Origin: an uncultured Gammaproteobacteria bacterium
GTDB taxonomy: Bacteria > Patescibacteriota > Patescibacteriia > Buchananbacterales > UBA6539
Assembly: GCA_964535715.1 (NCBI GenBank)
Contig: CAZHUO010000001.1
Span: 31,696-95,695, forward strand
Length of the DNA stretch: 64,000 bases
Direction: 5' to 3'
A program made the position numbers and the translations under genes. Within the stretch, counting starts at the first letter, position 1; each line of letters opens with the position of its first letter. A model generated the notes under the pieces. It was given only the letters and a program-made list of their open reading frames with translations. It was not told where the DNA came from and did not search any database. This document shows positions 9,001-42,989 of the stretch, in pieces.

Positions 9001-10231
9001 GCTGCCATGCTTCAATAATGAAAGCTGCATTGGCTTTAAAGGCAAGTGCGATGAAAATCAAATATGCGTTACATCTGAAGTAAACAAATATATTCCGCAA
9101 ATCGCTTCTTTTGATACGGTATGCAGTAATGGTGCATATGCAATTTGGGTGCAAAATATCTGTAAGTATGATTTAGGGGAGTTTGATGAAACCGCTGAAT
9201 TTATTATGTCTTCAAGGCCATTTGTTAGACTTGAAGTTTGCAGTGGAGATAGTACTATGTCTTGTACAAGCGATGCTCAATGTATAGATGGTCATGGTGT
9301 CAGTCATGGATTTTGTGTCTTGGTTGCTACCTCTCCCCTCCCGACAATTGATGGAGAAACATGTACTGGTCAAATGCCTGGTTCTGCGAATGCTGGTTAT
9401 GTTGGAGAAATAAAAAATGTGCCATTAAAATTATGTTCAAATAATAAAAGTAAAACTTGTGACAATAGTAGTGATTGTGATGGTAATAGTTGTGATTTTA
9501 TAAAAGATTTAAGATTATGCGTCATTGAAGAGCAGCATTATTTATTGTATAAAGAAAATACTACTGATATTTTATGCACTGATCAAAATGTTACTGATTT
9601 AAAAAATTGCAAAGATCTTCCTGGCTATAATCCATGCAATGAGGGAGATAGTTGGGATAACAATAAATATTGTTATAAAGATTCGGTCCTGCCGGTTATT
9701 TCAGCTGACTGCAATGCTGGTTCCCCGGGAAAAGTCTGCTATTCCGAAACTAGCTGCAGTATTAGCGGCGGAGATTATTGCGCTGTTTATCCGACAATCA
9801 CTTATTTTTCAGTCAATGGAAAAGAAGGATCGTCAATTCAGATATACGGAACGGGAAGCATTGTTTTGAATTTCACCGCTGAAATCGATGAAGCCCAGCT
9901 GCCTATGACCGGTTATGCTATAAATTGGGGTGATGATACTAAAAGCTCGGTCAGCGGCCAGTTGCTTGCTGTTCATTCAAGCAAGGAAAATCCTTTTAAG
10001 GCAACTCATTTCTATTCCTACTGGGATTTATTGGCTTTAGATCAAGCCGGAAAGCTTTACTGCGGACAGGCCCCTGGTGATAAATGCTGCAAGCCCGAAG
10101 AATCAGTATGTGTTGTTGTTCCTATGGTTCGGGTTACTGATAATTGGGGCTGGTGCAGCGGGGGGCAGCACGGCTCAGCTTGCCAAAGCAGTTGGACTCG
10201 ATTCGGCGGCCAAATTGTTGTTATGCCGTAG
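2..10231 (+). CDS. Giant secreted cysteine-rich surface protein, 5'-partial. Repeated beta-sandwich CBM/galactose-binding-like modules alternate with Cys-rich linkers. One internal hydrophobic helix lies near residue 2750.
   Basis: Single open frame from the window edge (no stop from nt 2) to the stop at 10231. The tool start at 47 is TTG, so the true start is probably upstream. Very high Cys content with recurring C-x(4-8)-GC-x-E-F and AGCSEF-type motifs. At least four segments look like CBM4_9/laminin-G beta-sandwich units (e.g. SLRFYNSGTNVTAEI..., SLSVKLINGGAVGKEHDF..., HSIMSQSLKLKTSIG...KTYLISFWAKS). Hydrophobic segment LTIELVIVLIVVKLIGMILL. Confidence 0.8.
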   Translation, partial: GDSESDSSDRFSLPDLPGFNFGSTGENEIYTGDTGLGFYGGRQGAQSRFIDFLNAGISEVGQYDILTKFTSCPDSANPGPDECVILSGFRQAIEKEITLSQAIESGYIAGDKPFGSMQFNGQESLRSGFPYRSLLILRSHRVIPVTWEIAAAAINKFEKGGSRSLNELIGSFNDKSSIYYGLIDPDWVLKLPEHYCKAQGYGEKILYEEVTEGIDNNADGDFNDDSDVPPIRMVGRSQYCADFQSCLKETEDGACMWGYCVEERRIWDLDASSCPKEFNTCQTFQGRSGNVFSALQNTLDFNGCNINNVGCRWYCQHYNPISKVWDCTSESERTLNVCVESTVDSNGVAGCAVAANCDINEGQNRCFDQGNGIEVKISEPCSSSSKWWNTATEKCSILSSEAACTIPRSGIQCYTSGCEKFDNLLSNPSFEVPPQPRIPGVLTFDIAQNWKINEAYINYFILAGGDREQVYDGSNSLRFYNSGTNVTAEINSDGINLVPGKQYTFSGKIYNNLVSGKATITINGTSKEITERKEGWQSLDFEFLGAINTSINIQIGGTISSGGQVAGSIWFDNFKITESCSVNPIKLTLIGTMETDQSKLHLDRNASECPSDKAGCSEFIRTKVGLGTNLYRNSSFEIWPEGQLFPPGMTYGDQWETSNRIEKIYSGLEGSLSVKLINGGAVGKEHDFQSESIIGMKPNTAYRISLWAKSDEKVDSKWSVGVLYKRSNGSINHDDLTINDKKELSLNSNWQHYIFNAYGTDIGGSEFKISFNNASTDPNVPIYLDAIQIEEVPSSNSYFSEYKDYGKVNLSYIKKAPESLGCKGYTKERPSPYVIDGIVAKEQCQGENLVWKKACLGGENNGKNCNSISDCPSGSCVPRGCEGDKCCHEIDPAECYSYSPYCFADEVGCNSYNPTEGNISIQSVVARDDYCPAECIGYDSYKQSATYFESKEALDFFIPSTAVSCTAADAGCDEFTNLDEISQGGEAKEYYKYLRLCKKPQDADAYCKTFYAWQGSSETGYQLKTYVLSTANALSNEPKSTITDLEDWPSEWCSDKTLDANGLPNCCNGPDDLEKNPFCREFYDINGTIYYKIYQNTISCSDNCHPFRKTRLGENDSDAETNCKASNGSWDSANLVCIYQAIPGQGIACSSRAIGCREYRGNAGANIFTAFFEDFESGTESGWKIGQIQSEALSIAGHSIMSQSLKLKTSIGVLTDSAGNPINCNDLTLRSCDANNPQDYNCYDRAANACKAKDSDRSDICLVQVGEQYCSVLGNTIKPKKTYLISFWAKSASANIVQDLEIKFINNNDVSDVLTPQKINIQPDWDYYLFGPYKAENIIRADGAIDPSIAIDFASRTGEFYVDNLRIQEVKNYVYVNKGTWATPQSCDQNPFVENGPIRAPQFMLGCKQYLDISNLVHNLRSFNKLCREIAVGCEAMIDTNNSTSPFSETFNQNDIYDNGTDYTTDDDVDFSLTVPQDKLVYIVNRLAYQCEQPYKGCQILGLPLININNEVVGYNTVSKINNPDDYANSLCRNSEVSCEEFSSGNKFSYFKSPGQKTCEYRQIPNQSKFAWYKTGSISVNPDCPIKQPPLGTVHPKSGWVGLCPEQYNNCTQFVDSATKFGKNLIFNYDFGMDIDRDTGGIPDGWYQEAAAANVELFQKIKVQQGKLYIFGVTSNADPATVDPLLGYSPNPLLKDTDFKFEIRGCESISSFDHSLIEEKNCADKTTGNLVLPKAACQNDSDCGSNRCAKILAMPPEVYQNDDRTNETISGLRGEREYTGRFFSPFDQYCEIRIIASPEADFIAKVRKNLNKVSAREALVNYALSDTVDKMSCNGVADEKAGCVLFNDRSYVNYRLGEDDISYLAFDADISGRSSGNELINNGLPVMESNTSAYRVDSNIVLKTKPDRECEAWIYPNSFTNFSEEKVERNFSTSIITCNSMESDGSCSGFAFNNNKLGTCRIDSSTPPVSSCINDSDCSAGFKCFRQSYDYYNNPEQVKNLSGFSKPGYYFAKGGVCTAGQAAGASCIDDFQCALVAGSCDKFVFGYYPFSEMKQLGGLTISQSTDFEAGILKPYGWILDDLLPLNSEPPDFSKAEWKPGYAMLINNPVSAQQQGIDPFAPSGRAFVRVSGPFRIKSEEIEAFSSTEYFISGYLNTVNLAEGSGLISIRELDGDGNKIGSDKPLLRLQKGNGWSLLTNNFITESATARLEVILSNWNDNGGLHDGVSGDTYFDDVKIRPVLKAAGLEFDDTYIVPSCRIYPASDSLSCDYYTDKNYRLRGWLGYCLQPDPANASQCLLWWPVDLIEGGYAPEQPSNIPSPLYYCLGAVEDLYYLNKCLFENGELCSSVNSRPNSSETLPRIFSWEVPQDWKIQDWQIQNISAGAMIVDCNPPESGAPYCQTQTAYSRLVFNRHPLEENAWVNRDGIKAKLNYSSQGLLESIDFEVLGANCVCNNIDITFVIKNIWCRYLVQTVTLFGQNKAWFNRISEEGAKRFVIPGLGYLESADYLLFGSAVPPEPAGEPEAWNLSDDSWIRPLLVARPYFEMFEAPYQARAGTPYACVQGSAAFWGKPCSYPGESGVTNIIAWSQNSDNSKDPLEHFINYYGKESLMRLFARTYGSWEFQGYGVCRPDPSLETPPVPIEAICACPESECAKLDKDITYKACGKGICSYFDEGGRLIPDSSDEALVPDNIVKCETDQECLDSRSCENNVCKGTLGVGCTTHLDCPISFCIPTGQSCEVDLWDCISLKQLISDAATMVIQTFYTDSYLTIELVIVLIVVKLIGMILLSCGPKSCSNSSGCDIGEGTCISFISYLLLNWGISDSDDPNGLDWVINSLIAPILGTMTGDASDGSGNVIQNILNLIGLGESNETLFESDVGIFAFIGDIFGEQLGTVLGSVCSNTPFRCSGGKKQRCCWWSNCNPFTTSQSRCEAGPFAGKICSTASVDESGDQCPEDYICELKSETSSYIDVSGFDWKEPISSCPNNVRPLGYCEGGIYDKLPCFNNESCIGFKGKCDENQICVTSEVNKYIPQIASFDTVCSNGAYAIWVQNICKYDLGEFDETAEFIMSSRPFVRLEVCSGDSTMSCTSDAQCIDGHGVSHGFCVLVATSPLPTIDGETCTGQMPGSANAGYVGEIKNVPLKLCSNNKSKTCDNSSDCDGNSCDFIKDLRLCVIEEQHYLLYKENTTDILCTDQNVTDLKNCKDLPGYNPCNEGDSWDNNKYCYKDSVLPVISADCNAGSPGKVCYSETSCSISGGDYCAVYPTITYFSVNGKEGSSIQIYGTGSIVLNFTAEIDEAQLPMTGYAINWGDDTKSSVSGQLLAVHSSKENPFKATHFYSYWDLLALDQAGKLYCGQAPGDKCCKPEESVCVVVPMVRVTDNWGWCSGGQHGSACQSSWTRFGGQIVVMP

Positions 10232-15311: not shown

Positions 15312-15617
15312 ATGACGCGTTATCAATATTATACCTACATAATGACTAATAAATTAAATACGACGATTTATATTGGTGTAACTAATGATATTTATAATCG
15401 AGTTTATCAGCATAAGAAAAAATTGGTCGAAGGCTTCACTAGCAGGTATAATATTAATAAGCTGGTTTATTATGAGGAATATGATTATATTGAAGATGCA
15501 ATATATCGAGAAAAACAATTAAAGAATTGGCGCCGCCAATGGAAAATTAATTTAATAAATGAATTTAATCCTGAATGGAAAGATTTAAGCGATGATTGGT
15601 ATGATGAAAAGGATTAA
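15312..15617 (+). CDS. Small stand-alone GIY-YIG nuclease-domain protein
   Basis: YIMTNKLNTTIYIGVTNDIYNRVYQHK matches the GIY-(x10-11)-YIG motif and the downstream R/H/N residues. It is 101 aa, the size typical of free-standing GIY-YIG selfish genes. Confidence 0.8.
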   Translation: MTRYQYYTYIMTNKLNTTIYIGVTNDIYNRVYQHKKKLVEGFTSRYNINKLVYYEEYDYIEDAIYREKQLKNWRRQWKINLINEFNPEWKDLSDDWYDEKD

Positions 15618-17295: not shown

Positions 17296-17305
17296 GCAAA
17301 ATAAA

Positions 17306-17460
17306 GGGTATTAACCGCGGAGAAAGTCGCTGACGCGTCAAAGGAGCGCTTTGGGGGTATTGACACTTGATGGCTCCTCGGTTCGGAAACAAAAAATTGT
17401 TTACTTTTTGTTTCTCTCTCCCTACGCCACTGTCGATCGAGATCGACGTGGCTTACGTCG
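17306..17460 (-). mobile_element. MITE-like structured repeat, copy a (inverted orientation)
   Basis: The reverse complement matches copies b, c and d (...gagagaaacaaaaagtaaacaa..ttttgtttccga.ccgaggagccatcaa..gtcaataccc...ccgcggttaataccc). Flanked by aataaa (17300-17305) and ttaataaaa (17461-17469). Confidence 0.6.
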
Positions 17461-17534
17461 TTAATAAAATATTTATTTGTCGATTATTGATATAAATGTT
17501 AAAATAAATCTAGGTAACTTAGGCCAAAGAATGC

Positions 17535-23487: not shown

Positions 23488-23963
<476 letters not shown>

Positions 23964-24065: not shown

Positions 24066-24499
24066 ATGTACTATGTTTATTTTTTGAAAAGTAAGAAAGC
24101 AGAAAATTGGATATATACAGGTTCAACAGTTAATTTAAAAAAAAGATTTTTAGATCACAGTTTAGGAAAATCATTATCGACAAAACCATATTTACCAGTT
24201 TATTGGCGACGTAGGGCGAGAGAAACAAAAAGTAAACAACTTTTGTTTCCGAGCCGAGGAGCCATCAAAGGGTCAATACCCGAAAGCGCTCCGTCGCCAA
24301 AGCTTTAATTATTCAGCTTTGGAGCGTCGGCGACTTGCTGCGGAAGAAGTGGGCGGAGCTTGCTCCGCGGTTTAATACCCTTTATTTAGCAGCTTATATA
24401 GCAGTTAAAACAGAAAGAAAGGCAAGAGATTTAGAAAAATATTTTAAGGCTGGGTCAGGCAAAGCAATATTAAAAAAAAGAATTTTAACTAACGAAGTG
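24066..24499 (+). pseudogene. GIY-YIG gene, copy 2, disrupted by MITE-like insertion after codon ~46
   Basis: The reading frame is identical to 23663..23917 up to ...KPYLPVY. It then runs into the insert (182 bp including the duplication, not a multiple of 3). Confidence 0.6.
24205..24380 (+). mobile_element. MITE-like structured repeat, copy b, with 6-bp TTTATT target duplication
   Basis: Empty site in copy 1 is ccagTTTATTtagcagc. Filled site in copy 2 is ccagTTTATT[ggcgacgtagggcgag...ggtttaataccc]TTTATTtagcagc. Internal stems ggcgacg/cgtcgcc, gaaacaaaa/ttttgtttc and gcggagc/gctccgc. Confidence 0.75.
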
Positions 24500-24596
24500 T
24501 AAACGTAATCAGTTTTAAGCGACGAAGCCCTTTAAAGGGCGTAGTCGCATCCACCCTCTCAATTTGAATATATATAAAAATAAATAAAATAAATTT

Positions 24597-38792: not shown

Positions 38793-40610
38793 ATGGCTAA
38801 AAAACTATTAACAATATTTATTGGCGACGTAAGGCGAGGGAAACAAAAAATATTAAATTTTTTGTTTTCGAGCCGAGGAGCCATCAAAGGGTCAATACCC
38901 GAAAGCGCTCCGTCGCCAAAGCTGCACTTTTTCCAGCTTTGGAGCGTCGGCGACTTGCTGCGGAAGAAGTGGGCGGAGCGCGTCGTCGCCAAAGCGGCTT
39001 TGACGCGTCGGCGACTTGCTCCGCGGTTAATACCCTTTATTCTATCGATAGTTTTAATTGTAAGTTCTTTGATTTTATTAAAAACTAACGCCCAGGAATT
39101 GCCGGCCGCCATGCTTTGCGGAGACGGAATTGTCCAGTCGCCAAACAGCGAAGGTTTTTATGAAAAATGCGATGAAGTCGGAGAAACCAAAAGCTGCACC
39201 AGCCAGTGCGGCCAAAAACTGCTTGGCTGGGCCTGGTCGGACAATATCGGCTGGATTTCTTTAAGTAATGAAAATTGTGATTTTTTGGCTGAAGGGACTT
39301 GCCAAAATCAGAATTATAATTATTATGTCCAGGCTAAAGCCGCTGAAATGGCCGATGGCGAGGTTAAAGGGGAAATTATAGGCTGGGGCTGGTCGGACAA
39401 TATCGGCTGGGTTTGCTTTGGCCAAACTTGCCAAGGTTATTCCGACCTTACTCCGCCTGATGGCTGGCAGACTTATGCAAAGCAGGCAGGCACTAATGAT
39501 CCGTTGGTTTTCGGCTGGGCTTGGAATGAATCAATCGGCTTAATTTCTTTAAATTGCGGCCTTAATTCAATTCCATGCGAGACTTCTGACTATCAGTTAA
39601 AACTTATTAAAAGTGATTTTGGATCTGTCCAACGCCTTACATTGTTAGGCTGGGCCTGGTCTGATATTTCCGGCTGGACTTCTTTTACTCCTGAAATCAG
39701 CGATACTCTGCCTTGGCTTCAGACAAAATATGGCGATATTTATGCCAGAAAGGGAATTTTGGGAAATGAGCCGCCTGATTATGGCTATAATGCCACTTAT
39801 CAGATAATTTCCGGAGACATTATCACTAATTTCCGCTCGGCAAGAGGTGAAGACTGGATTAAACAGGGATTTCAGGAAATCGGTTTTCCCAGGCCTAGCA
39901 CCCGCTATTCCAACGTTTTAGGGAAGATAAATATTTCGGATTTACTCTGTGATCTTTCAGTCCAAAATACCTGCATAAACAAGTTTGGAAAAATTGTTGA
40001 AAAGATTATTGATGAAAACAATTCAGGCAATATTGATCTTTCGGGCAAAATATATTACCGGGACGGTAATTTAGTCATCGACAATCCTATAAATTTTATG
40101 AATGCAGTCGGTTTTGATGACGGAAGCGGGACGATTATCGTTAATGGTGATTTGGTTATAAATAGTGACGTCAAATATGATAACTCCACTAGTCCGATAA
40201 TATTTAAAAATTTAGCTTCCGCCGCCTTTATTGTCCTGGGAGATTTGAAAATCAGCCCAAATGTCTCGAATTTGGCCGGAAATTTCATTATTATCGGCAA
40301 CGGAAATGATTGCAATCCAAATCAGGAAAGTGAAGTGACCGGCTGCGGCCAAATATATACTTGCTGCGTTTTAAGCGGCGAAAGCTGCGCTTTTGACGAA
40401 AGAGTCTGCCAACAGAATCCTTTAATAGTTTCCGGCTTGATGATGGCTAAAAAGTTTTATTTAAAACGTATATTCATCACCGACTCGCAAGATGTTCAGG
40501 GTTCGGAAATCATTATTTACGATGGGAGGCTTTTGGCCAATACGCCTCCGGGGTTGGGCGACTTTGCCAAATCAATGCCGATTTGGCATTTGGATTTTTT
40601 GTCTCAATAA
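38793..40610 (+). CDS. Secreted protein with five GWAWSDNIGW(I/V) repeats. The signal-peptide region is interrupted in frame by MITE-like copy c.
   Basis: After conceptual excision of 38823-39041 the N-terminus reads MAKKLLTIFILSIVLIVSSLILLKTNAQE, a canonical signal peptide. Repeats LLGWAWSDNIGWISL, IIGWGWSDNIGWVCF, VFGWAWNESIGLISL, LLGWAWSDISGWTSF. Confidence 0.65.
   Translation: MAKKLLTIFIGDVRRGKQKILNFLFSSRGAIKGSIPESAPSPKLHFFQLWSVGDLLRKKWAERVVAKAALTRRRLAPRLIPFILSIVLIVSSLILLKTNAQELPAAMLCGDGIVQSPNSEGFYEKCDEVGETKSCTSQCGQKLLGWAWSDNIGWISLSNENCDFLAEGTCQNQNYNYYVQAKAAEMADGEVKGEIIGWGWSDNIGWVCFGQTCQGYSDLTPPDGWQTYAKQAGTNDPLVFGWAWNESIGLISLNCGLNSIPCETSDYQLKLIKSDFGSVQRLTLLGWAWSDISGWTSFTPEISDTLPWLQTKYGDIYARKGILGNEPPDYGYNATYQIISGDIITNFRSARGEDWIKQGFQEIGFPRPSTRYSNVLGKINISDLLCDLSVQNTCINKFGKIVEKIIDENNSGNIDLSGKIYYRDGNLVIDNPINFMNAVGFDDGSGTIIVNGDLVINSDVKYDNSTSPIIFKNLASAAFIVLGDLKISPNVSNLAGNFIIIGNGNDCNPNQESEVTGCGQIYTCCVLSGESCAFDERVCQQNPLIVSGLMMAKKFYLKRIFITDSQDVQGSEIIIYDGRLLANTPPGLGDFAKSMPIWHLDFLSQ
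38823..39035 (+). mobile_element. MITE-like structured repeat, copy c (213 bp), flanked by TTTATT at 38817-38822 and 39036-39041
   Basis: Same family as 24205-24380, with an internal duplication (gcggagcgcgtcgtcgccaaagcggctttgacgcgtcggcgacttgctccgcgg). Insert plus duplicated flank is 219 bp (73 codons), so the host ORF stays in frame. Confidence 0.75.
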
Positions 40611-40625
40611 TGTTAAAATTAAGTT

Positions 40626-41801
40626 ATGCCACTATTTTCAAAATCTAAAAATTATATTGGAATCGATTTTGATTCCAATAGTGTAAAGATAGTTGAATTG
40701 AAAAACGAAGGCGGCCGGCCAAGGCTTGCCACTTATGGCTATATTGACAAAGAAATTAATGGTTTATTAAGCAGTGAAAACAAGGGAGATGCAAACGAAA
40801 TTGGAAAATTAATCAAGCAAGTCGGTAAAAAAGCTAAAGTGACGACAAATCAAGCGGTTGCCGCTCTTCCTTCTTTTTCGGTTTTTAGCTCGATTTTAAG
40901 CCTGCCGGAAATGTCAAAGAAAGATTTAGCTTCAGCAATCAAGTGGGAAGCAAAAAAAGTAATTCCTCTTCCGGCCGAAGAAATGATTTTGGATTGGAAG
41001 GTTCTTGATAGTGATGAAAAAAACAAGGCCGGCGAAAAACCGAAAGAAAAAAAAGAAAGCAATGACGCAAAAAAAGATGAAAGCGTCCAAGAAGATGAAA
41101 ACAGCGAAGATGATGAAAAAGACGATGGATTTTTAAAGATTAGCCAAAAAACTAAAAATAAAAGCACTAAAGTTTTGCTGACAGCGGCGCCAAAAGACCT
41201 GGTTAAGCGTTATATGGAAATTTTTAAAGCCTCAGGTTTCGCCTTATTAAGCCTTGATACTGAACCTTTGGCTTTAATCCGCTCTTTGGCTTCAAATGAC
41301 AAATCGCCTTTAATGATTGTTGATATCGGATCGGTTGTCACAAATATTTCGATTTCGGTCAATGCTGTTCCGATTTTAAGCAGAAGCCTGGATGTCGGCG
41401 GAATGACAATAACAAAATCAATTGCAAACAGCCTAAACGTAAGTTTATCTAGAGCCGAACAGTTTAAATATGATATCGGAATGAACCCGATGCGCGCCGG
41501 CCAGGGAAGTGTTCCAAAAACGATTGAAAACGCCTTGGTGCCGATAATTGATGAGTTAAAATACAGTATAAATTTATATCGAAATCAAGGTAAGAATAAT
41601 ATTGAAAAAATAATTCTAACCGGCGGATCTTCCTTGCTGCTTAATTTGCCAGAGTACTTGTCTAATGTTTTAGGCATTAGATCGTTTTTAGGCGATCCCT
41701 GGGCAAGAGTGATATATCCGGAAGAATTAAGGCCGGTTTTAGATGAAATTGGCTGTCGTTTTTCCATAGCTGTCGGCTTAGCGATGAGAAATATTGAATA
41801 A
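40626..41801 (+). CDS. pilM: Type IV pilus assembly protein PilM (actin-like ATPase fold) with an acidic low-complexity insert
   Basis: YIGIDFDSNSVKIVEL N-terminal motif and overall PilM layout. Insert KNKAGEKPKEKKESNDAKKDESVQEDENSEDDEKDD. Confidence 0.85.
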   Translation: MPLFSKSKNYIGIDFDSNSVKIVELKNEGGRPRLATYGYIDKEINGLLSSENKGDANEIGKLIKQVGKKAKVTTNQAVAALPSFSVFSSILSLPEMSKKDLASAIKWEAKKVIPLPAEEMILDWKVLDSDEKNKAGEKPKEKKESNDAKKDESVQEDENSEDDEKDDGFLKISQKTKNKSTKVLLTAAPKDLVKRYMEIFKASGFALLSLDTEPLALIRSLASNDKSPLMIVDIGSVVTNISISVNAVPILSRSLDVGGMTITKSIANSLNVSLSRAEQFKYDIGMNPMRAGQGSVPKTIENALVPIIDELKYSINLYRNQGKNNIEKIILTGGSSLLLNLPEYLSNVLGIRSFLGDPWARVIYPEELRPVLDEIGCRFSIAVGLAMRNIE

Positions 41802-41816
41802 TTAATATTAAAAATT

Positions 41817-42911
41817 GTGGCAGACATTAATTTATTGCCAGATGACTTGAATGATTCTACAAAGGACGGAAAATTTTTTGTTGGCAGAAAAAATTTAAAC
41901 AATAAAGGATCCGAACCAAGTAATCTTGGCAAAGAGCCTTTTTCGTCTGAATCGAAAAATTCAGTTTTTGGCCGTTTTTTTTCCGGGAGTCCTACGGAAA
42001 AGCCGGCACTTAAATTATCTGAGATGTCAAAGATAAAGAATAATTCAACAGATAACGATTTAATTGAAAATAGCCAAAAAAAGCCGCAAAATTCCGATTT
42101 AAGCGGTTATGAGCTTGAAGAAATAAAAAATAAAAGAAGAGAATTGAAAAATGAAAAAATCGCCATAAGAAATAGCCAGTCGGAAAGAGAAAATTTGTCA
42201 AAAATTTTTAAGCCGAAAGAAGCGGTTGACTTGCAAGTAAAACAAGCCGAGCAGGCCGAATTTAATAAGGCAGGTAAAGATGATACGGCAAAAAAGACAA
42301 AAAAAGAGGCAAAAAAAGACAAGCAAGATTTTTTGGATGTTAATTTGATGCCGCAGGAAGAGACTTTCATGCAGCCAGAGCTTGAGGTGTCAAAGAAACT
42401 TTATTTAAGCGCCATGATAATTTTTTCTTCCATTTTTATTGTAGCTGTTTTATATCTTGGCATTACCCTATATCAGCTCAGCATCGCAAAAAATATATCA
42501 GAAATCGAAAAAGAAATAAATGATTTGGGTCAAAAAATTTCAAGCGTTGAAGGTAATAAAAATGAAGCACTTGCGGTTCAAAGTCATTTTGAGGCGGCAG
42601 ATAAACTCATAAAAAAGCATATATATTGGACTAAATTTTTTGGTTTTTTGGAAAAATACACAAATAATGACGTATATTACACAAGTTTTTCAATGGCCGG
42701 CCAGGATAAGCTGGTGATATCAGCGGTTGGAAAAGACTATCAATCTGTCGCCAAGCAGTTGGTTTCTTTCCAAAAAGCCGGTGATTTTATAAAAAATGTG
42801 AGAATTGATGCCGCTTCTGCCGACATTGTTGATGAAGCGGGAAATTATCAGGTCAACTTTAACATAAACTTGGAATTTCAGCCCGCTGTTTTTTTCGAGG
42901 CAGATAAATAA
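41817..42911 (+). CDS. PilN-like bitopic pilus assembly protein with a long disordered N-terminal region
   Basis: Single TM LYLSAMIIFSSIFIVAVLYLGITLYQL followed by a coiled-coil plus periplasmic domain. Positioned between pilM and pilB. Confidence 0.6.
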   Translation: MADINLLPDDLNDSTKDGKFFVGRKNLNNKGSEPSNLGKEPFSSESKNSVFGRFFSGSPTEKPALKLSEMSKIKNNSTDNDLIENSQKKPQNSDLSGYELEEIKNKRRELKNEKIAIRNSQSERENLSKIFKPKEAVDLQVKQAEQAEFNKAGKDDTAKKTKKEAKKDKQDFLDVNLMPQEETFMQPELEVSKKLYLSAMIIFSSIFIVAVLYLGITLYQLSIAKNISEIEKEINDLGQKISSVEGNKNEALAVQSHFEAADKLIKKHIYWTKFFGFLEKYTNNDVYYTSFSMAGQDKLVISAVGKDYQSVAKQLVSFQKAGDFIKNVRIDAASADIVDEAGNYQVNFNINLEFQPAVFFEADK

Positions 42912-42912
42912 A

Positions 42913-42989
42913 GGGTATTTCACCCTTTGTCGGCTCCTCGTCTCGGAAGCAAAAAATTGTAATTTTTGTTTCACTCGACTTACGTCGCC
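42913..42989 (-). mobile_element. MITE-like repeat, short copy d (77 bp), flanked by aataaa on both sides (42907-42912, 42990-42995)
   Basis: The reverse complement ggcgacgtaagtcgagtgaaacaaaaattacaattttttgcttccgagacgaggagccgacaaagggtgaaataccc matches the 5' module of copies b and c. The insert overlaps the stop codon region of the PilN-like gene. Confidence 0.55.

Follow-up and report, generated by a model that had tools for sequence, protein, structure and literature searches.

Short structured repeats that lie within open reading frames (ORFs), in frame and free of stop codons, and that add a peptide to the encoded protein are known as the RPE of Rickettsia and as ERIC/RU, QMITE and BOX elements (PMC10969869), and in Y. 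pestis YPO1552 a repeat contributes to the predicted signal peptide (PMC2759123). In-frame insertion of structured repeats is already known behaviour. Here we describe a further case, found in a 64,000-nucleotide (nt) stretch of contig CAZHUO010000001.1 (assembly GCA_964535715.1), hereafter the window, where a short element splits the signal peptide of a secreted protein encoded at the head of a type IV pilus cluster (the host protein and host gene). Like RPE and the other intragenic repeats, this element is short, structured, multi-copy and non-coding, and lies in frame in some ORFs; unlike them, it lacks terminal inverted repeats and does not form a palindrome as a whole, it keeps to a fixed hexamer and orientation, it is unrelated in sequence family and host phylum, and it splits a pre-existing signal peptide instead of creating one. 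What is new is the family itself, its unrelated ends, its fixed hexamer and orientation, its RNA-like modular architecture, and two signal-peptide insertions in the same frame. The family appears to be undescribed, as it is without an Rfam entry and literature searches returned no paper on it. As the best explanation of the whole, we consider it reasonably probable that a mobile element inserted into the signal-peptide coding region, that translation would run through it, and that export was plausibly kept.

An insertion in the signal peptide of the host protein

The insert (positions 38823-39041, + strand) comprises 219 nt and continues the host frame for 73 codons without a stop; its G+C content is 54% against 38.5% for the window, and it starts GGCGACGTAAGG and finishes AATACCCTTTATT. 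Its deletion joins MAKKLLTIFILSIVLIVSSLILLKTNA to QELPAAMLCGDG, a normal signal peptide with cleavage before QE, and yields a repaired host protein of 532 amino acids (aa), in agreement with an earlier model-made note on this DNA (the sequence-only reading), which had delimited the same ORF and insert. A search of 5.8 billion proteins returned a single identical 605-aa protein (P0001), and only one protein cluster, with one member, carries the insert. At E <= 0.001 the host protein has 181 homologues, nearly all labelled Patescibacteria, Buchananbacteria or Falkowbacteria. Among the 48 with listed N-termini, about 40 start with an uninterrupted signal peptide followed by AQ.. and a conserved CGDG(I/V)VQSPN, and the 73-residue segment is absent from all 48. 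The closest homologue, P0002 (66% identity, 530 aa), is encoded on contig CAZCCC010000007.1 (L015) of the metagenome-assembled genome GCA_964497245.1, in a locus with the same order as in the window, that is LemA, a YadA-head protein, P0002, pilM, pilN, pilO, pilB, a response regulator, pilT, pilC and a pilin; here both the signal-peptide site and the pilN/pilO junction are empty. An uninterrupted signal peptide in the homologues, the syntenic P0002 among them, marks the 73 residues as an in-frame insertion and not a domain. The comparison with orthologues proposed by the sequence-only reading has thus come out in favour of its claim of an insertion.

Evidence at the DNA level came from the comparison of empty and filled sites. 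Between positions 23561 and 24560, a cassette of about 403 nt is present in tandem, made up of 16 nt from the 3' end of tRNA-Ser(GCT), a GIY-YIG gene of 83 aa and the hairpin GCGACGAAGCCCTTTAAAGGGCGTAGTCGC. At the corresponding position, unit 1 reads ccagTTTATTtagc and unit 2 reads ccagTTTATT[element...ACCC]TTTATTtagc; therefore, the insert equals the element plus one extra hexamer. Conversely, L015 carries a short-form copy upstream of its YadA-head gene, a site at which the window has no copy. These two comparisons of empty with filled sites (between GIY-YIG paralogues, and between the window and L015) show insertion at the DNA level and, together with the four copies in the window, they uphold the earlier description of a multi-copy mobile element lying in frame in a signal peptide.

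Copies, architecture and target of the element

BLAST, pattern searches and an nhmmer profile identified exactly four copies in the window, two on each strand (Table 1), and the counts of matches to the 5' 27-mer, S1 and S2 were never reached in 100 shuffles. Overall, the family counts at least 15 distinct copies of 83 to 257 nt in genomes and metagenomes of Patescibacteria. The 5'-module pattern matched Candidatus Buchananbacteria RIFCSPHIGHO2_02_FULL_56_16 (L001, L002), GCA_964497245.1 (L003, L004) and ten metagenome contigs, and the nhmmer profile revealed diverged copies in L003, L004 and L015. No match was obtained in three scans of viral contigs with the 5'-module and 3'-module patterns.

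The short form (83-90 nt) consists of S1 GGCGACGTAGAGCGAGTG, hairpin H1, S2 CCGAGCCGAGGAGCC, AAAAA, the H2 hairpin GGGTTAATACCC and TTTAT(T), while in the long forms (111-257 nt) extra hairpins are accommodated in the H2 loop, namely a variable H3, GCGGAAGAAGTGGGC, H4 (GGAGCTTGCTCC) and GCGGTTAATACCC. The joining segments are nearly invariant across copies and the hairpins vary: H1 is swapped wholesale for an unrelated longer hairpin in L003b and L004b, H3 differs in sequence in almost every copy yet always pairs, and in H4 of L001 three base pairs are compensated while the CUUG loop is retained (88.9% of cells paired). These three double changes, all of which come from one sequence, were reached in 12 of 500 shuffles. 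The consensus fold of the core is predicted to contain H1, H2 and a 5-bp closing helix (UUGGC/GCCAA), for which the almost invariant conserved segments leave no covariation. Compared with shuffled sequences, the fold of the insert gives z = -4.7 as RNA and -4.6 as DNA. The signal-peptide copy corresponds to the 182-nt type enlarged to 219 nt by an extra hairpin of about 37 nt in the H4 loop (38977-39023), and its first internal loop is without the TAA by which the 182-nt copy is closed in this frame. Searches against Rfam 15, with the window at gathering thresholds and with the element at E <= 10, returned nothing but tRNAs and noise. A resemblance of the 5' segment to tRNA (GGCGACG-UA-GAGC...) was dismissed, as ARAGORN finds no tRNA there.

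Every copy is laid out as TTTATT followed directly by GGCGAC...ACCCTTTAT(T). The hexamer, mostly extended to TTTTATT, always stands 5' of GGCGAC on the same strand and never as AATAAA, while the right-hand hexamer is sometimes TTTATC or TTTCTT. Several copies come straight after a terminator-like hairpin and T-run, or after a tRNA. The presence of the hexamer on both sides of the element, as compared with one in the empty paralogue, fits a 6-bp duplication, and the hexamer could equally be part of the element. The termini are S1 and ...ACCCTTTATT, and comparison of the 5' end GGCGACGTAGAGCGAG with the reverse complement of the 3' end AATAAAGGGTATTAACC showed no terminal inverted repeats. H1 lies 18 nt from the 5' end, and H2 or H4 lies 6-17 nt from the 3' end. 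Two + and two - copies are found within 26 kb over which the GC skew is positive nearly throughout (n = 4, hence weak). The window, 18 loci and three viral-contig scans yielded no autonomous parent insertion sequence (IS), no transposase-like gene was found among the window ORFs, and no IS200-type/Y1 (HUH) transposase motif was found in the 182 kb scanned; between the two L003 copies lie metabolic genes only. By eye, no convincing complement was seen for an internal guide pairing with the target hexamer, such as that of IS608 or of the exon- and intron-binding sites (EBS/IBS) of group II introns.

The sequence-only reading had called the element a MITE (a miniature transposable element with inverted repeats), a term that suits its small size, its lack of coding capacity and its copy number and that, in the absence of terminal inverted repeats, can be used only loosely. 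The element shares with classical MITEs the flanking TTTATT direct repeats and the polymorphism between paralogues and related genomes; it differs from them in its unrelated ends (GGCGACGTAG... versus ...GGTTAATACCC), in its invariant orientation to a non-palindromic target and in that no parent IS was found in the sequence searched. It is also reminiscent of IS200/IS605-derived PATEs and of REP/RAYT, with which it shares asymmetric ends, subterminal hairpins, a fixed A/T-rich neighbour and a single orientation towards it. In contrast to these, it has the hexamer on both sides, shows no guide-to-target complementarity 5' of the hairpins, occurs in both orientations on one replichore, and is not accompanied by a Y1 transposase motif in the sequence scanned. 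Possible mechanisms include a 6-bp duplication made by an enzyme that senses orientation, a conservative recombination with a core of 6 nt, and a single-strand mechanism of the HUH type. The RNA-like architecture (joining segments, swapped or compensated hairpins, repeated CUUG loops) could also, though with very low probability, reflect RNA-guided or RNA-templated integration at TTTATT. With ends that do not resemble each other, one constant orientation to its target and no transposase known for it, the element poses a small question in transposition mechanisms, in a group, the Patescibacteria, whose genomes are tiny and gene-dense and whose mobile DNA is little known.

Two arrangements of copies are worth reporting here. 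In L004 (658-860) and L011, two 5' halves (S1-H1-S2, and an inverted S1 with long H1) stand head to head, flanked by TTTTATT...AATAAAA; such a composite, whose ends are inverted repeats, might be one way in which an asymmetric element becomes a true inverted-repeat MITE. In addition, L010 (5275-6643) and L013 (5781-7149) agree at 100% identity over a stretch that opens 11 nt upstream of the element and takes in 1.2 kb of its right flank, and their left flanks are unrelated, each terminating in a terminator-like hairpin and T-run. Either the DNA was rearranged at the element, or the assembly is chimeric at the repeat.

Fate of the interrupted protein

Of 231 TTTATT/AATAAA sites in the window, 190 are inside ORFs (190:41), so that most random insertions would be expected to land in genes. 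Four intragenic copies were found, three of which are in frame and stop-free. Compilation of these copies showed that (i) the signal-peptide copy of the window is open throughout, (ii) a 135-nt copy in L007 (4924-5058), antisense, is in frame and stop-free within a 516-aa Nramp-like ORF, where it is placed in a hydrophilic stretch between hydrophobic segments, (iii) a 135-nt copy in L016 (192-326), in frame and stop-free, splits the lipoprotein signal peptide of a Peptidase_C39_2 lipoprotein, P0122 (MKRLFLCWFI[GDVERVKQK...LALRSIPFI]FGLSTIIAGC, with a 45-aa insert), and (iv) the remaining copy, at 24205, frameshifts a gene that has an intact twin adjacent. P0122 is identical in three metagenome assemblies, and most of its 15 listed homologues begin with an ordinary lipoprotein signal, e.g. 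MKKVFIIAIFLAFLILGC; its orthologues are without the insert segment. In P0122 and in the window protein, the element lies in the same frame, at a Phe-Ile pair within the hydrophobic core. The preference for signal peptides needs no function, because TTT-ATT in frame encodes Phe-Ile, a pair that is typical, where a genome is A/T-rich, of the hydrophobic cores of signal peptides. Copies that are open and in frame give the impression of having survived selection, which would remove disruptive insertions and leave in-frame, stop-free ones at tolerant positions.

Based on these observations, a small, non-autonomous, hairpin-rich DNA element, of a family specific to some Patescibacteria, would have integrated at a TTTATT of the signal-peptide coding region, and the host protein would be translated from its normal ATG straight across the element, which is open in the host frame. 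The 60-nt window at ATG 38793 folds with -6.0 kcal/mol, as compared with -4.9 +/- 3.4 for 42 gene starts. The resulting precursor would bear a 73-residue basic insert (16 K/R, 4 D/E) after MAKKLLTIFI and ahead of the remaining signal peptide, with n-region, core and cleavage motif all present and 73 residues standing between the first two. Read in this frame, the element closes with Arg-x-Ile-Pro-Phe-Ile, and the end of the insert, RRRLAPRLIPFI, provides a charged n-region in front of the core; the C-terminal part of the element, ...TRRRLAPRLIPFI, may thereby rebuild the positively charged n-region. Within the first 110 residues, strong hydrophobicity is confined to the segment LIPFILSIVLIVSSLILL (approximately residues 76-96, Kyte-Doolittle values up to 2.7), the rest of the insert being basic and not hydrophobic. 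This core is intact and preceded by the element-encoded RRRLAPR, and the cleavage site between TNA and QE is untouched. According to the positive-inside rule, such a segment should insert with its N-terminus inside, exposing the cleavage site to signal peptidase; the TNA/QE site would be exposed in this way. The precursor could then still be Sec-targeted and cleaved to give the normal mature protein. We infer read-through translation and retained export from these sequence features. The claim of the sequence-only reading that the insert should block secretion would seem overstated on the same grounds, and in view of the same-frame copy of P0122 in three independent assemblies.

Several considerations weigh against this explanation. 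A 75-residue N-terminal extension before the core is far above the usual, and targeting might be delayed or go astray because of it. The insertion may also be of recent date and do slight harm, and the intact gene body is no proof of function. The element is certainly able to inactivate genes, as its frameshifted GIY-YIG copy shows. The count of in-frame copies is biased, as the protein search that found P0122 detects in-frame copies only. Finally, we take the element to be a target-specific, non-autonomous mobile one, in which "mobile" is read from insertion polymorphism and copy number alone.

ALTERNATIVES tested were internal initiation, RNA-level removal and translational bypass, in addition to which a loss of the gene has to be weighed. 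The host gene may have been inactivated or be on its way to it, the extended precursor being mis-targeted or degraded and the gene a young pseudogene, as yet free of further lesions. The frameshift that the same family caused at 24205-24386 speaks for it, as does the extreme nature of a 73-residue insert in a signal peptide that is carried by one single-member protein cluster and limited to this lineage among the homologues examined. We nevertheless regard inactivation as rather unlikely, given an insert length that is an exact multiple of 3 without a stop, a preserved hydrophobic core, flanking positive charge and cleavage site, an equivalent insertion in a second exported protein (P0122, identical in three assemblies), and the position of the gene, which leads a type IV pilus cluster that is intact in other respects. 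Far less probable is a start within the element, for which TTG 39000 is the sole internal codon of use and which would have the element donate a new n-region and start to give MTRRRLAPRLIPFILSIVLIVSSLILLKTNA. This codon is in frame and would yield a product whose n/h/c layout is ideal; however, its 60-nt window folds with -31.8 kcal/mol at 68% GC, as compared with -4.9 +/- 3.4 (minimum -16.6) at 24% GC for the 42 gene starts, and it has no Shine-Dalgarno motif at a suitable distance. The outward promoter that the sequence-only reading had envisaged did not materialise, as the element has neither a promoter-like nor a terminator-like site. The in-frame TTG that it placed at 39073 lies at 39069; this codon would indeed give MILLKTNA and is accessible, but a product starting ILLKTNA has no signal peptide.

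Least weight of all was given to the idea that the element is removed at RNA level, which the sequence-only reading had also raised, here taken as a tiny self-excising RNA lost after transcription, or that ribosomes bypass it between the identical UUU-AUU codons; we regard either as a very slim prospect. The strong structure (z = -4.7), the conserved joining segments with hairpins swapped or compensated between copies, the identical flanking hexamers, and the fact that precise removal restores both interrupted ORFs in the window are all in keeping with it. Splicing nevertheless finds no Rfam ribozyme or intron match at E <= 10, and none of the 7 boundary choices within the TTTATT repeat ends in G (group I) or begins GUGYG (group II, GUGYG...AY). 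Moreover, the short form has only 83 nt, copies lie in both orientations to genes, and the antisense L007 copy is open and in frame, which would be needless if it were spliced. With the frame kept and no stop in three of the four intragenic copies, the pattern bears the mark of a translated element, not of a removed one. As for bypass, the codon after take-off is GGC and not a stop, the matching UUU-AUU codons are a trivial by-product of the direct repeat, and the gap of 219 nt (182-219 nt across copies) is about four times the longest known to us, bypassed gaps being of about 50 nt in T4 gene 60 and of 27-55 nt for the yeast mitochondrial byps. If RNA-level removal or skipping were true, coding insertions would be phenotypically silent, including the out-of-frame 182-nt one in GIY-YIG.

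The family provides a clean case of a selfish element whose A/T-rich TTT-ATT (Phe-Ile) target funnels it into hydrophobic signal peptides, and in which the element-encoded peptide (ending R-x-I-P-F-I) can leave the export signal usable. Retained export would also gauge the N-terminal extension that a bacterial Sec or lipoprotein signal tolerates, and would warn annotators that such proteins are mis-scored as non-secreted.

Host locus and additional observations

The coordinates of the features are compiled in Table 1. The mature part of the host gene is open over 505 codons, the AlphaFold model of the protein has a pLDDT of 85, and the gene body looks intact on this predicted structure. Four W-rich repeats were counted, one fewer than the five of the sequence-only reading, whose placing of the gene directly upstream of pilM stands. 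Neither Pfam nor NCBIfam has a model for the family, despite its 181 homologues, most of which come from Patescibacteria, and the Cys-rich N-terminal and W-repeat parts gave no match. The C-terminal half of the mature protein is modelled as a right-handed beta-solenoid resembling the competence pilin ComZ of Thermus thermophilus and the DUF3494 ice-binding proteins; the identity is only 10-14% and the Foldseek likeness weak (E 6.6e-3, TM 0.20). In contrast to the prepilin type of ComZ, the signal peptide of the host protein is of the Sec type, and the protein was therefore not called a pilin. With its gene leading the pilus cluster, an extracellular, pilus-associated role is plausible for it. 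Upstream of it lies a gene of 762 aa with YadA-head repeats, and downstream of pilM are PilN and PilO matches weaker than that to PilM_2.

Table 1. Features of the host gene, the insert and the other copies of the element in the window
Feature	Position	Strand	Remarks
Host ORF	38793-40610	+	605 aa; secreted protein, Patescibacteria-specific; adjoins pilM upstream, heading the pilM-pilN-pilO...pilB-pilT-pilC-pilin cluster
Original n-region and start of h-region, MAKKLLTIFI	38793-38822	+	First 10 codons; ATG 38793 in an A/T-rich, weakly structured leader, typical for the genome
Left target hexamer TTTATT	38817-38822	+	Read as Phe-Ile; (T)TTTATT precedes all copies
S1, conserved 5' segment of insert	38823-38840	+	
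H1, first hairpin of insert	38841-38867	+	
S2, conserved segment following H1	38868-38882	+	
H2, second hairpin of insert	38889-38900	+	
Internal hairpin module 1	38904-38962	+	
Spacer GAAGAAGTGGGCGG	38963-38976	+	
Internal hairpin module 2	38977-39023	+	Placed within the loop of the 3' hairpin H4
3' module, GGTTAATACCC plus TTTATT	39025-39041	+	
Right TTTATT	39036-39041	+	Last 6 nt of insert; again Phe-Ile; single TTTATT in the empty-site paralogue
Remainder of signal peptide, LSIVLIVSSLILLKTNA	39042-39092	+	h-region, c-region with cleavage motif; from homologue N-termini and hydropathy
Mature protein	39093-40607	+	505 aa; Cys-rich N-terminal segment, four W-rich repeats, C-terminal right-handed beta-solenoid (modelled)
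W-rich repeat span, GW(A/G)W..(I/S)G(W/L).(S/C)(L/F)	39225-39686	+	Four units: 39225-39263, 39381-39419, 39513-39551, 39648-39686
pilM	40626-41801	+	PilM_2, PF11104, E 1.1e-37; starts 15 nt after the host ORF
Empty target site, single TTTATT	23796-23801	+	Intact GIY-YIG paralogue; flanks 100% / 98.3% identical to those of the filled site
Second copy, 182 nt	24205-24386	+	Frameshifts the GIY-YIG gene that it interrupts, the second of the tandem pair
Third copy, short form, 83 nt	42907-42989	-	Exactly between pilN and pilO
Fourth copy, 163 nt	17300-17462	-	Diverged 5' end with extra hairpin; intergenic, opposite strand, 4 nt past the metK stop

At the third copy, the pilN stop codon lies within the terminal TTTATT, and the pilO ATG lies 9 nt past the 5' end of the copy and 3 nt past its flanking TTTATT; both genes are intact and are now parted by 83 nt of structured antisense element. 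With respect to gene starts, a GGAG/GAGG/AGGA motif was found upstream of only 4 of the 43 predicted starts in the window, and the leaders are A/T-rich and weakly structured (mean 24% GC, -4.9 kcal/mol per 60 nt); translation initiation in this genome seems largely independent of Shine-Dalgarno pairing.

In L015, an isolated exact 14-mer, TTAATACCCTTTAT, equal to the 3' end of the element, is present at 9976-9989, where it overlaps the stop of the YadA-head gene 12 nt ahead of the P0002 start; the window has there TTAATAC and TTATT, separated by a gap of three positions. This 14-mer may be a remnant of the element or due to chance. The assembly to which L003, L004 and L015 belong (GCA_964497245.1) is titled uncultured Gammaproteobacteria bacterium; it has a pil locus syntenic with that of the window, a G+C content of 35% and the same repeat family, and its P0002 is 66% identical to a protein whose named homologues are all from the Patescibacteria group. 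The Gammaproteobacteria label is probably wrong, gene content and homologue labels pointing to Patescibacteria. Finally, the tandem cassette of the window shows a third, degenerate boundary near 24545, and looks like a small GIY-YIG cassette reiterating at the 3' end of tRNA-Ser; a further GIY-YIG gene (15312-15617) is followed by three TTTGTCATCCTGAATTCATT repeats, two of which are extended to ...TCAGGATC.

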